In this document: piece by piece, positions 1,713-33,775 of the stretch
Layout of the letters: each line of letters starts with the position of its first letter
How positions within the stretch are numbered: position 1 is the first letter of the stretch
From: Malassezia furfur
Lineage: Eukaryota
Assembly (NCBI GenBank): GCA_052055015.1
Contig: JBQJIT010000012.1
Reading direction: 5' to 3' (one strand)
Length of the DNA: 64,000 nucleotides
The notes under the pieces: generated by a model
Told to the model about the DNA's origin: nothing
What the model saw: only the letters and a program-made list of their open reading frames with translations
The model's database searches: none
Translations under genes and position numbers: made by a program

Positions 1713-3530
1713 TTACTCCTCGTCACAGTCATCATCGTCGTTCCCCGTTGCCTTGGCATGCTTGCTCGAAGAGTGGTGCTTCGTAGCATGGTGCTTCGAA
1801 GAGTGGTGCTTCGACGAGTGATGCTTCGACGCGTGGTGCGACGAGTGGTGGTGGTGCGTCGAGGAGTGGTGCTTGTCCTTGTCCTCGTCACACGGCGTGC
1901 TGGTGTGCTTGGCCGACGAGCTCAACGTAGACACCACATGGACCAACTTCTTGGTCGAAGTACGGGCCTCATCATTGTTAGTACTGATGTTAGCATTGCG
2001 CGCAGAGGAAGTCGGAGACGAAGAAGCAGACGACGACGATCCCGAGGTAGAGCTCGTGTTAGAAGATGATGTGGGGATGCAGTGCTTTTTCACCGCCTCA
2101 CTAACCTTGCTAGCGCTCGGGAAGTTCTGAAGAAGGGGCGGCAGCAGACTGTCGTCCGTGTCGTCGCACGTGTCAACATCGTCACCGGAACCAGAGCTGG
2201 AGCTGGAGTTCGAACCAGAGTTCGAGCTCGAGTTCGAGCTCGAGCCCGAGTTCGAGCCCGAGTCGGAGCCAGAGCCCGAGTTCGAGTTCGAGTTCGAGCT
2301 AGAGTTCGAGCCCGAGTTCGAGCTCGAGTTCGAGCCAGAGCCCGAGTCAGAGTCAGAGCTAGAGTTAGAACCAGAACCAGAGTTCGAGCTAGAGTTCGAG
2401 CCCGAGTTAGAACCCGACCCAGAGCTGGAGCCAGAGTTGGAGTTGGAGTTCGAGTCCGAGTCAGACTTGGAGTTCGACCCCGAACCCGACTTCGACCCCG
2501 AGCCTGAGTGCGAGTTGGATCCCGAGTGCGAGTTAGAGCCAGACTTCGAGCCAGACTTAGACCCCGAGCCCGAGTTCGAGCTCGAGTTCGAGCTCGAGTT
2601 CGAGCCCGAGTTCGAGCCCGAGTTCGAGCTAGAACCAGAGTCCAGACCAGGGAACGAGTCAGAGGACGAGTTGCTACCCGAACCGCTGTCCGAGTCGCTG
2701 CTCGAGTTGCTACCCGAACCGCTGTTCGAGTTGCTGTTCGAGTTGCTGTCGGAGCCGCTGTTCGAGTTGCTGTTCGAGTTGCTGCTCGAGCCGCTGCCCG
2801 AGCCGCTGTCCGAGTCGCTGCTCGAGTTGCTACCCGACCCGCTGCTCGAGTTGCTGTTCGAGCCGCTGCCCGAGCCGCTGTCCGAGTCACTGCTCGAGTT
2901 GCTACCCGAGCCGCTGTTCGAGTTGCTGTTCGAGTTGCTGTCCGAGTCGCTGCCCGAGTTGCTCGTCGAGTCACCGGTCGAGCTAGGCACCGAAAGAATG
3001 CTCGACACGCCCGGGTCCGAGCCCGAACCGCTGTCCGAATCCGTACCAGTCAAGCCACTGCCAGATCCACCGGCCACAGCCGTGGGCATCGCAGCAACGC
3101 TACCGCCCTCACCCTCCAGGGTAATGGTCTGCGCCAGCGTCGCCGTGCGAGTCCAGGACGGGTTCGACGTCGTGGTGGGCGTGTAGGTCGTGATATAAGT
3201 ACGGGTGCGGGTGCGGGTGCGGTACTTGGTCTTCGTCTCGCTCTTCGTGCTGCCCTGCTCGTCCGTCTTGGGGATAAGCACAGTGTAGGGCTCCCAGGTC
3301 GGCTCCTCGTGCACCTTACGGCGCTGAGCACGGAGCTTGCCAGCCGTCACGCCCATGTCGCGACGGGCAAAGTCAGGAAGGGCATCGTGCGCCGCAACAT
3401 CGCCAGCGTTGCCGCGGGCAACGAGACCTGCCTGACCATTCTCCATGACGACAGGGGCAGCGTAGGCCTGGCTCGCCAGGAGCATGGCCACGCAAACAAC
3501 ATTAAGCATACGCGTAACGGAGAAAGCCAT
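1713..3530 (-). CDS. Secreted Ser/Asn/Gly-rich low-complexity protein with His-rich C-terminus
   Basis: 605-aa ORF with signal-peptide-like N-terminus ([26 protein letters not shown]), Thr-rich stretch, ~300 aa of S/N/G/D repeats and SKHH repeats. Confidence 0.75.
2190..3080 (-). repeat. Coding tandem repeats (SGSNS/SNSNS/SDSDSG)
   Basis: Visible 6- and 12-nt periodicity (ttcgag/ctcgag; gctgttcgagtt) inside the secreted protein ORF. Confidence 0.9.
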
Positions 3531-31136: not shown

Positions 31137-32367
31137 ATGACGGAGTCTGCACCCAAAGCCGTAATTGTCGGAGCCGGCGGTGCGTTGTGTGGTATTGTTG
31201 GCTAATACCAGTGCTCGGACTTACTAGTGCGCTCGAGTTGCGCGCCCGTGGCTACCAAGTCACGTTCGTCGCTCGCGATCTTCCCCATGATTATCACTCA
31301 CAGGGCTTTGCGTCGCCGTGGGCGGTAAGTCTTACTGCTCACACAGGGTGCAAACTGGCTTTCGTTTGCGGGAAGTGACGAAGCACAGCGCCGTCGCGAT
31401 GCGACGACCTACAAAAAGTTCCGTGAACTGAGCAAGGAGCTGCCAGACGACACGCTCGCATTCATCCCCTTCTCGTGCTTCCACCCGAAGGAAAACGATA
31501 CCGAGACGTATTGGTTCGGCGACCTGTGCGGCGGTGTACGTATCGCAACTCATTACAGATGAAAATGTACCCGGCCGGTCAACCTAAGTCGACCGACGAA
31601 GCGCCTTACCTGTACGAGTTCGAGTCCATGGGCTTAAATGTGCCGCGCTACCTGCAATGGTTGGTGAAGCGCCTCAGTGAGCCGCACAAGGACCTCCCCG
31701 GGCCGCCTGTGCGTTTCCTGCGAGGCTATGTGCCGTCGCTTAAGGCGGCAGCCGAGCTCGTGCCGGGCGCATCACTGGTGATCAATGCGTCAGGGCTGGG
31801 TGCCAAGAACCTTGAAGATGTACGGGACGATAAAATGTACCCGATCCGTGGTCAGACCGTGCTGGTGTACGCGCCACGTTTCCGTGACCCCAAAGTTGCG
31901 CGGTGCTACAGTCGAATCACCAAGGACGGTGCGACCTACGTCATCCCTCGCGCGCGCAGTGGACAGGTGATTCTGGGTGGCACGTTTGATGTGCGCAAGA
32001 CTGATACGCTCAATCCCAAGGCAGATGTGACAGACCGGATTCTGCGCAACTGTGTCGAGCTGGCGCCTGAACTGCTGCCCGAGACGGCGGACCCCAACGA
32101 CCCAACCGCGTACGTGACGCTGGATGTGCTGCGGAACAACATTGGTGTGCGTCCTGCACGCGAGGGTGGTGTGCGTGTCGAGCTGGACAAGCCGCTCCAT
32201 GTGGATGGCCACGAGGTGGGCGTGATTCATGCCTACGGGATCGGTACGTCGTCCCTACTCACGACACAGGCCCTGCAGGGTACCAAGCAAGCTACGGCGT
32301 GGCTGCCGAGGTCGGTGCGCTCGTGGACCAATGGCGCTCGACGCACGGACCGCGCGCGAAGCTGTAG
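31137..32367 (+). CDS. D-amino acid oxidase, peroxisomal (PTS1 AKL)
   Basis: [65 protein letters not shown], ends AKL*. Introns 31180-31211, 31325-31346, 31536-31558, 32244-32269. Confidence 0.93.
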
Positions 32368-32401
32368 CGGCCAGCACGCGCGCCAGCGGCCATACGATGT
32401 A

Positions 32402-32435
32402 GCACGTGACATGCACCCCTCTGCAGGCATAAAAT
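32402..32435 (+). promoter_or_regulatory. CACGTGAC box plus A-rich TATA-like element upstream of the candidate ncRNA
   Basis: GCACGTGAC at 32402-32410 and CATAAAA at 32428-32434; the same box recurs in many promoters of this window. Confidence 0.4.
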
Positions 32436-32459
32436 GTGCCGCGGTGCGATTTTTTGCTT

Positions 32460-32895
32460 TCTCACCGCACCGGCGTGGTGAGGGTCCCTCTGGGACGCTC
32501 GCGCGCAGACCACTGAAGGGATGCGCCGACCTTTGGGTATCCATGAGCCTTAGCGGGCGAGTGGGCATTCGCGTAGACCGGTTGGCGGTAGCGGCTAGCG
32601 ACTCGCCCATGTTGTCCCCCGTTTGTTGTATGGCCGGAAGCTGCACGGCAAGCACCTTGGCACGTTTGCAGGGAGTCGGAGTATCGATCGCCGTCTGAGC
32701 TGGTCTGCTCCGGGTCCTGAGTGGCAAGACGGCTACCGTGTATGTGGGTCATGCACGGCGGGTGTGTCGCATGGGATGGAGGACCCCCTAATTTCATGGC
32801 CTAGAGGCAGCCGCTATGCGGCAATGACCTGTCGGGTCACAACCTAGGGTTGGTTACATTTTTGCCAGACTGTGTTGTGCTATTCCATAGTTTTT
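32460..32895 (+). ncRNA. Candidate structured ncRNA of unknown class (Sm-like site, three-way junction)
   Basis: More than 8 nested helices with G-U pairs valid on +, AUUUUUG at 32858-64 followed by a hairpin, and upstream CACGTGAC. No convincing ORF. Confidence 0.55.
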
Positions 32896-32912
32896 CAAAC
32901 ATGTGTGCCCAT

Positions 32913-33624
32913 CTAGTCGGCGGCCAGGCGGCGCGCCGAGGCGTCGCGCTTGGCCTTGAGCATAGCAAGCTTTTCTTCCTTGCTGGCATCGTACGAGACG
33001 TGCAGCTGGTTGAACGGGTTGTCCGGCGACTTTTGGAACTGCTTGTAGAGCAGGTCGTTGTACTGCTGCAGACGCAGGCCCGGGTGGTCCTCGCGCAGCC
33101 TGGGCAGCTCGCGCTCCTTGTACGCCTCGAAGGCCGCCTTGAAGCGGCGCTCCGGGTGCTTTTCGAGGGCGCCTGCCGCGGCACCGCGGCTGGCTTTGTC
33201 GCTGCGGTCGTTGACCAGGTTCATGGCCTCGAGTGCATCGTCCAGATTGGATGCACTGAACGACGCGATCTGCAGATCAAGGTCGTCGAGGTCATTGGGC
33301 CCTGCCGGTGCACCCTTGCGTGCGCTCGGCTTGGTGTTGTTGCTCTTATTGCCGCTCGACTTCTTCGACGGAGTTGCGGCATCGTCCTCTTCCTGGAGGC
33401 GGCGGAGTTCCTCGCGTTTGCGTGCCTTGGCTTCCTCCTTCTCGCGGCGCTCGTCGGCGGACGACTTGCCCTTGGCACCCTTCTGCCACTTTTGCTCCTC
33501 CTCGGCCTCACGGGCCTCGGCAGCCTGGGCGGCCTTGCGCTCGGCAGCCTCTGCCTTGCGCGCACGGCCGGCAACAGCCTTTGCATTCACTGGGTGAGTG
33601 GGGCGACATACTCTTGGGGGGCAT
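32913..33624 (-). CDS. CCDC124/Oxs1/Lso2-family coiled-coil ribosome-binding protein
   Basis: MPPK|MNAKAVAGRARKA..., EKHPERRFKAAFEAYKERELP.LR...PGLRL.QY...L.K.F.KSPDNPFNQ. Intron 33590-33611. Confidence 0.9.
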
Positions 33625-33775
33625 GGTGATGATGGTTGGGCGGGCCGTGCGGGAATCGATCGGGGTGGAGTTGTGGCGTGGTGGGAATTTGCCCAATTTG
33701 TGCAGGTCACTTGTTCATTCCCCCGGACGCACGACCGCCGACCTGTTTGACGACGTGCATAACGCAGCACTTTTC

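Follow-up and report, generated by a model that had tools for sequence, protein, structure and literature searches.

The 64,000-nucleotide (nt) stretch of Malassezia furfur DNA analysed here (the window) contains a gap between two convergent genes, one for a D-amino-acid oxidase (DAO, + strand) and one for a CCDC124-like protein (- strand). An initial annotation, made from the letters alone, had placed in it an unannotated, highly structured RNA on the + strand, starting near 32460. The locus thus raises the question of whether the gap holds a dedicated RNA gene and, if so, of which kind. The gap is real and measures 545 nt, and the proposal of a structured + strand non-coding RNA (ncRNA) held up, with a structure that two syntenic relatives keep through compensatory changes. 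We conclude that the locus very probably gives rise to a genuine functional ncRNA of about 400 nt from the + strand, conserved across Malassezia and probably encoded by an independent gene. The best reading of its class, based on modelled folds and with a probability of roughly 0.45, is a long RNA resembling the small nucleolar RNAs (snoRNAs) of the box H/ACA type.

Relatives of the locus were found using spurious open reading frame (ORF) translations of it as probes. Public protein sets contain such translations (P0121, P0123, P0241 and P0243-P0248), some in sense via the DAO intron and others antisense. The read-through ORF 31475-32695 (+) matches P0121 with 93% identity over 95% of the query and P0123 with 65% identity over 86%. 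The non-coding tail of P0123 retains VSMSLxGxVGIxVDRLAVA, corresponding to window 32537-32595, together with the CACGTG and TATA-like stretches; through this read-through "shadow" ORF, a fourth lineage is seen to keep 32537-32595. The antisense ORF 32465-32800 (-) matches P0243 and P0244 with 58% identity at residues 65-112 (32465-32608), and the cluster member P0246 is represented by 87 contigs, some from JGI. Two of the five antisense-ORF matches, P0242 (1004 amino acids, 26%) and P0245 (688 amino acids, 34%), were judged to be unrelated long proteins. When the DAO sequences were aligned, the tails that P0128, P0129 and P0137 gain by reading through did not resemble that of the window, a result of little weight given that different frames or earlier stops are possible. 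A protein search with the sense ORF 32599-32844 scored no candidate. A scan of metagenome contigs, built from the shadow-protein alignment, confirmed 2 of 190 pattern-matched stretches, designated L001 and L002. Both are syntenic with the window, with DAO, a conserved spacer and a convergent CCDC124 gene, and the orthologous RNA of L001 lies at 2646-3050 on its - strand.

In the alignment of the three species (window, L001 and L002), block conservation spans 32465-32858, about 395 nt on the + strand. Calculated per 50-nt bin, identity to L001/L002 was 0.76/0.62 at 32450-99, 0.62/0.68 at 32500-49, 0.74/0.78 at 32550-99 and 0.90/0.86 at 32800-49, compared with mostly 0.5-0.75 in the DAO coding bins. 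The flanks gave 0.26-0.48 at 32350-32449, 0.22/0.56 at 32850-99 and 0.22-0.56 over 32850-32949. The middle, 32600-32799, varies more (0.34-0.58) and has indels whose lengths are not divisible by three, and the least conserved parts are the 55 nt beside the CCDC124 stop and the spacer beside the DAO stop. An RNA of about 400 nt that is conserved like the neighbouring protein genes is likely to be important. All three codon positions are conserved alike within the conserved blocks, and L002 has other letters in place of the AUG that starts the longest sense ORF. A coding gene was rejected, with two scanned spacer ORFs lacking a Pfam match and with indels breaking the frame in the variable parts.

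Consensus folding of the three sequences with RNAalifold gave -118.3 kcal/mol on the + strand, with 128 pairs, 32 of them with changes on both sides, and -70.6 kcal/mol on the - strand, with 86 pairs and 12 double changes. In the + consensus 90.5% of cells are paired, and its 32 double changes compare with 14.6 +/- 2.8 in shuffles (none of 500 reached 32) and 5-10 in slid controls. The - strand structure also beats the controls, because Watson-Crick covariation must carry over to it. Several G-U pairs, however, are invariant across the three species and would give A-C on the opposite strand, and these, with the larger and stronger + consensus, bear out the strand chosen in the initial annotation. 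Its individual helices fared differently. Every string that it quoted occurs where it had been placed; nevertheless, the long-range helices GGGUCC/GGACCC, CUCUGGGAC/GUCCUGAG and GCAGACCA/UGGUCUGC are not kept in the relatives, nor is the 5' hairpin CUCACC/GGUGAG. On the three-species alignment, its 74 pairs score 8 double changes and pair in 76.1% of cells, in a comparison that favours the consensus by derivation.

Upstream of the conserved blocks lie two promoter-like elements (Table 1). A CACGTG box noticed earlier is present in both relatives too, and we take it to be a candidate promoter element of the basic helix-loop-helix (bHLH)/Cbf1 type. At the three loci, a manual count puts the TATA-like element 34-39 nt ahead of the point where the conserved RNA letters begin, with an unconserved spacer in between. 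Together, the conserved box and the TATA-like element suggest an independent gene. RNA polymerase II would start about 35 nt downstream of the TATA-like element, behind the CACGTG box, placing the probable start within ~32450-32464 in a pyrimidine-rich leader; this 5' leader differs among the three species. An RNA polymerase III gene was rejected, as no T-run terminator follows the RNA in L001 or L002.

Table 1 Features of the locus between the DAO and CCDC124-like genes (window coordinates)
Feature	Position	Strand	Remarks
CACGTG box	32403..32408	+	(T)CACGTG in window, L001 and L002; spacing to TATA-like element varies
TATA-like element ATAAAA	32429..32434	+	At all three loci; relatives have TAAAAAGG
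Proposed ncRNA	32457..32861	+	About 400 nt; both ends predicted, the 3' end placed 3 nt after ACA
Helix H1, 5' strand CCGCACCG	32465..32472	+	Pairs with 32586-32594
Helix H2, long hairpin with apex GUCCC-UCU-GGGAC	32473..32506	+	15 pairs, 93.3% of cells paired, 4 double changes
AGACCA, H-box-like hexamer (ANANNA)	32507..32512	+	Directly 3' of H2; ambiguous
Core of 5' domain: GGGAUGCGCC, AUGAGCCUUAGCGGGCGAGUG, GCGUAGACCGGUUGGCG, H1 3' strand (32586-94)	32513..32594	+	Highly conserved
Variable linker	32595..32667	+	34-58% identity; indels not multiples of three
Central long hairpin	32668..32723	+	Conserved tip GAUCGCC..GGUCUG, then conserved CUGAGUG
Variable segment with window-specific hairpin CCGUGUAUG/CAUGCACGG	32724..32781	+	Each species folds its own hairpin; no conserved H box
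3' hairpin	32782..32855	+	86-90% identity; 1 double change, 5 one-sided changes
ACA triplet, candidate box ACA	32856..32858	+	GUYACA in all three species; conservation stops here
AUUUUUG and terminal hairpin, outside the RNA	32858..32893	+	Unconserved spacer facing the CCDC124-like 3' end

The proposed RNA would consist of three modules: a 5' domain closed by H1 and containing H2, a central hairpin with a conserved tip, and a 3' hairpin ending at the ACA. All cells of the 8 pairs of H1 are paired in the three species, with 2 double changes (A-U to U-A and C-G to U-A). The core of the 5' domain (32513-32594) shows 62-78% identity between the window and its relatives and 78-90% between the relatives, and it also appears in the shadow translations P0123 and P0243/P0244/P0246. 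Its pairings cannot be tested by covariation because they are mostly invariant. Within it, 32513-32585 shows two symmetric 2x2 internal loops of invariant sequence with tandem G-A, GA opposite GA at ~32521/32577 and GA opposite GA or AA at ~32546/32559, which may be protein-binding motifs. A kink-turn reading of these loops was dropped because the 3-nt bulge is missing. For the central hairpin, the minimum free energy (MFE) fold of each species yields the same long stem though the stem letters differ.

The 3' hairpin was folded for each species from four letters before CCCUAA through three letters after the ACA, and the MFE and centroid shapes were the same in all three. Its lower stem pairs GAC.CCCUA with UAGGG..GGUU in the window and, across species, follows G-R-C, CCCUA with UAGGG, and G-U-Y. 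Above it, an internal loop sets AUUUCA (32791-96) against CAACC (32840-44), followed by an upper stem of UGGCCUA with U(C)GGGUCA, by another stem with covariation between L001 (AGGGUA/UGCUCU) and L002 (GGAAGA/UGUUCU), and by the cap GCYGC-UAU-GCGGC. The last letter of the stem directly precedes the ACA, and beyond this triplet the three sequences have nothing in common (UUU, GGA and AGU). The same region had been drawn in the initial annotation as a clean three-way junction, which is not the preferred fold once the conserved flanks are included. Its hairpin GCCGC-UAU-GCGGC, the form that the cap takes in the window, is kept in the relatives. The arms CCUAG/CUAGG and UGACC/GGUCA lie in invariant sequence and can pair in the relatives, but the alternative pairing wins the MFE in all three species. 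A 19-letter stretch of the 3' hairpin recurs once in bacterial and archaeal genome contigs (L003 1501-1519, bacterial), a chance match without wider likeness, and has zero matches in viral contigs.

It is the 3' end of the RNA that points to the box H/ACA type. Excerpts from two sources give 14-16 nt as the distance from the loop top to the ACA (PMC7601244; PMC2664660). In the predicted fold, the top of the internal loop lies 16 nt from the ACA in the window and 15 nt from it in both relatives, so that the pocket-to-ACA spacing falls within 14-16 nt in all three species, the junction being allowed as well. Cbf5/dyskerin with Nop10, Nhp2 and Gar1 would bind this 3' module and protect the RNA, and the bound proteins would fix the mature 3' end 3 nt past the ACA. 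Base-pairing with a target RNA would fall to the two invariant loop strands, AUUUCA and CAACC, and the letters around them. Judging from its length, its stand-alone gene and its invariant loop region, the RNA may be a processing or chaperone snoRNA like snR30/U17, or else a long pseudouridylation guide. Like the guide snoRNAs, the RNA has a lower stem, a pocket, an upper stem and an ACA after the stem, with the pocket top 15-16 nt from the ACA, and its loop strands of 6 and 5 nt would suit a guide. It differs from them in being about twice the usual length, in lacking an adjacent 5' hairpin plus H box, and in its inner lower stem CCCUA/UAGGG, which is invariant and shows no covariation.

That the RNA is the functional counterpart of snR30/U17 is doubtful, although no known family comes closer to it in size and layout. 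This family (SNORA73) is an essential box H/ACA snoRNA for the processing of 18S ribosomal RNA (rRNA), long and stand-alone like the present RNA (325 nt in S. pombe and 606 nt in S. cerevisiae, according to excerpts from PMC7601244). At about 400 nt, the present RNA is of comparable length and exceeds the usual H/ACA range, 90% of such RNAs falling within 148-266 nt (PMC5824354). In both, the 3' hairpin is conserved, has a large internal loop and is followed by the ACA right after the lower stem, and extra internal structure lies between the 5' and 3' hairpins. The loop strands, which in snR30/U17 dock on the 18S rRNA, would be the recognition elements here too. The loop strands, however, are AAUUUCAUG and CAACCUAG here instead of the motifs m1 (AUAUUCCUA) and m2 (AAACCAU), described in the same excerpts as nearly invariant from humans to Tetrahymena (PMC7601244). 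The spacing of 7 nt from m2 to the ACA given in part of PMC2664660 is matched only with the heptamer AACCUAG in L001 and L002, the window having 8 nt. The H box is unconserved here, and the 5' domain is strongly conserved, in contrast to the variable 5' part of snR30 (PMC7601244, in excerpt). With the 18S motif rm1, given as GGAAU in the excerpted PMC2664660, AUUUC (32791-95) could form 5 pairs, one of them G-U, and AACC (32841-44) pairs with 4 of 6 letters of the canonical m2 partner; both are leads rather than evidence.

By analogy, the RNA might also be a genus-wide ribonucleoprotein (RNP) RNA of a new kind. Its strongly conserved 5' domain, a three-way junction made up of H1, H2 and the GGGAUGCGCC...GCGUAGACCGGUUGGCG core, would then have its own function together with the hairpin tip, and the 3' hairpin, of the H/ACA type but lacking a canonical H box, would have been co-opted only to stabilise the RNA and direct it to the nucleolus or Cajal bodies. 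We regard this idea as speculative and rather unlikely. Vertebrate telomerase RNA is an example of a 3' H/ACA domain fused to a functional 5' domain, a layout that would here occur in a basidiomycete. The likeness to it, confined to architecture, lies in a 3' H/ACA-type module that could serve stability and trafficking beside a separate conserved 5' domain; the differences are that the present RNA has no template, no identified pseudoknot, no conserved H box and no match to a telomerase family in Rfam.

A number of results weigh against the H/ACA-type reading. None of the H-box candidates (ANANNA) has the canonical form in every species: at 32507-12, the window (AGACCA) and L001 (AUACCA) conform, but L002 (AUUCCA) has U as its third letter and does not; after H1, AGAAAG in L001 and AAACGA in L002 fit but CUAGCG in the window does not; and before the 3' hairpin, AUAGGA occurs in L001 only. 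A search of the last 200 nt for a canonical two-hairpin unit found no 5' hairpin and hinge adjoining the 3' hairpin. Searched alone against Rfam (E up to 10), the 93-nt 3' hairpin matched no H/ACA or other family, and in none of the three species does the RNA contain the snR30/U17 motifs m1 (ATATTCC) or m2 (AAACCAT). On the alignment, pairing is seen in 100%, 100% and 86.7% of the cells of the three junction arms. The one pair of the junction that is informative, A-U 32827/32837, does not form in either relative, though the window itself favours the junction there. The choice between hairpin and junction rests on energy predictions and on 1 compensatory and 5 one-sided changes, because the deciding letters are invariant.

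The folding energies of the window and of L002 belong on the same side of the balance. The + strand of 32460-32895 folds with an MFE of -185.3 kcal/mol, compared with -178.5 +/- 6.6 for shuffles (z -1.03; 15 of 100 fold as well), and the - strand gives z +0.12. With the refined ends (32457-32861, +), z is -1.49, 8 of 100 shuffles being as good, and the L002 orthologue gives z -1.10; the energies are thus unremarkable in both species. The initial annotation had named a folding energy no better than that of shuffled controls as grounds for discarding the RNA, and since the energy of the window lies within the shuffle range, the finding would fail by that yardstick. Its single helices score z of about -2 to -3, but were picked post hoc. 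The L001 orthologue, by comparison, reaches z -4.53, with no shuffle of 100 folding as well. A single-sequence energy test would therefore miss the RNA in two of the three species (z -4.5, -1.5 and -1.1). The covariation itself rests on three DNA sequences, two of them close to each other, with a poorly aligned middle region, and the pair counts lean towards the consensus because it was derived from the same three sequences.

Among the other explanations, the RNA could be a structured RNP RNA outside the known families, its conserved modules binding other proteins and its ACA and loop geometry being coincidental or serving another 3'-end mechanism. None of the 4227 Rfam 15 families reached its gathering score in the 64-kb window, and at E up to 10 or 5 only stray sub-threshold matches appeared in the window and orthologues (two of them in 32300-33000), none to the whole RNA. 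The covariance-model search that the initial annotation had proposed thus assigned the RNA to no known family. By eye, no convincing hallmarks of RNase P, MRP, SRP, U1-U5, U3 or C/D-box RNAs were seen, and Rfam is the real test for known families. The 5' 330 nt, including the strongest covarying helices H1 and H2, resemble nothing that we can name, no H box is conserved, and a three-way-junction fold of the 3' element is compatible with the conservation. We nevertheless consider this explanation unlikely, since the ACA at the end of conservation, the stem directly before it and the 15-16 nt loop distance coincide in three species, as predicted by the H/ACA type and not by chance. A less probable explanation still is that the element belongs to the 3' untranslated region (UTR) of the DAO mRNA or is processed out of it. 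It lies on the DAO strand about 100 nt past the stop, the order DAO to RNA is kept in both relatives, and the L001 CACGTG box follows the DAO stop by only ~15 nt, leaving little room for a separate DAO 3' end. There is also precedent in the group, as Ustilago telomerase RNA and, as proposed, that of Malassezia derive from mRNA precursors (PMC12506658). However, the TATA-like element is kept amid unconserved spacer on both sides, which fits a promoter better than a UTR, L002 has about 100 extra nt between the DAO stop and the box, and linkage to DAO is weak evidence because Malassezia genomes are largely syntenic anyway. Scarcely credible, in our view, is the absence of any dedicated RNA, with chance helices in a GC-rich spacer of overlapping 3' UTRs or a DNA-level element accounting for the signal. 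The energy of the window lies inside the shuffle range, and GC-rich DNA gives many complements of 6-9 nt. Against this stand blocks conserved at least as well as the coding DNA on either side, the compensatory helices and the strand asymmetry; moreover, the spacer beside both stop codons is the least conserved, the opposite of what is expected for UTR elements.

An Sm-class RNA, either a compact telomerase RNA or a new species like the small nuclear RNAs (snRNAs), had been the assignment of the initial annotation, built on the three-way junction, an Sm site and a terminal hairpin. We find it very improbable. The strings it quoted are present in the window and the junction arms can pair in the relatives, and the invariant U-rich AAUUUCAUGG (32790-99), just upstream of the junction element, might pass as an odd Sm site; it deviates from the usual Sm pattern, however, and sits in the predicted internal loop. 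The proposed Sm site AUUUUUG (32858-64) and the terminal hairpin AGACUGUG/CAUAGUUU (32867-93) have no counterpart in L001 or L002 and lie beyond the conserved RNA. With the Sm-class spliceosomal snRNAs U1, U2, U4 and U5, the RNA shares polymerase II-type upstream elements and a structured length of a few hundred nt, but it has no conserved Sm site or terminal hairpin and no match to U1, U2, U4 or U5 in Rfam. In contrast to snRNAs, it has no fixed 5' recognition sequence, because the 5' leader differs among the three species. For telomerase RNA, a search of 32300-33000 on both strands gave no match of at least 8 nt to any permutation of TTAGGG, TTAGGA, TTAGTG or TTAAGTG; a single CCCUAA is the only telomere-like string at the locus, and elsewhere in the window there are four 8-mers, none of at least 9 nt. 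The complement of the telomere repeat, which the initial annotation had suggested looking for, therefore has no template-length match here. A putative Malassezia telomerase RNA, MgTER, was published at another locus, flanked on one side by NDK1 or a cysteine hydrolase gene and on the other by a DUF1115 gene (Sanpedro-Luna and Sanchez-Alonso 2025; PMC12506658); across 18 strains its template changes in step with the telomere repeat, and its AAUUUUU site is invariant. Like the present RNA, MgTER is compact (~480-500 nt), genus-wide and intergenic, lies downstream of a same-strand protein gene and was found by comparative genomics (PMC12506658), but the present RNA is at a different locus and has neither a template nor a conserved Sm-type site. 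No NDK or DUF1115 domain was found by Pfam among the 75 window ORFs scanned. Given the different flanks, the missing template and the published candidate elsewhere, a telomerase RNA at this locus was rejected.

On human skin, Malassezia yeasts are the dominant fungi, and they have small, well-studied genomes. Their ncRNA set is barely charted, with the telomerase RNA candidate proposed only in 2025 (PMC12506658). The M. sympodialis annotation paper, in the parts searched, makes no mention of snoRNA, snRNA or ncRNA (PMC5389616); RNA sequencing with enrichment for ncRNA exists for that species (PMC5389616). We found nothing specific in the way of a published description of this locus or of Malassezia snoRNA or ncRNA annotation; the electronic supplement of a fungal snoRNA survey (PMC5824354) may list Malassezia H/ACA RNAs, which bears on novelty. 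If the H/ACA-type RNA proposed here is the counterpart of snR30/U17, its changed motifs would depart, as a rare exception, from sequences that are otherwise the same from humans to ciliates, and matching changes or shifted contacts would be predicted in the 18S rRNA. Otherwise, it would count as a new structured RNA ending in an H/ACA-like tail, and its partners could be searched for directly. Spurious ORF calls in public protein sets are also usable for tracing non-coding conservation.

The neighbouring genes were defined as follows. On the left, the spliced frame of the D-amino-acid oxidase (Pfam DAO, + strand) closes with ...GPRAKL at TAG 32365-67. Removal of a very short intron of 26 nt (32244-32269; GTACGT ... 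CTCAC ... CAG) restores the C-terminus with its AKL tripeptide end, which is identical to the C-terminus of the annotated M. furfur protein P0122 and presumably resembles a peroxisomal targeting signal. At this position L001 is intronless and L002 has an intron of ~50 nt. On the right, the gene for the CCDC124/LSO1-like protein (- strand) has its stop codon at 32913-15, and the stretch 32858-32893 facing it is AT-richer spacer (48% GC) in otherwise GC-rich fungal DNA. Among named relatives, the protein is most similar to those of M. obtusa (91% identity) and M. yamatoensis (85%), which places the organism in the M. furfur group of Malassezia. Its gene appears to have a short first exon (MPPK...) on the - strand at 33590-33700, with an intron from near 33590. 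On the same side, identity to the relatives falls to 0.20-0.46 in bin 33300-33349.

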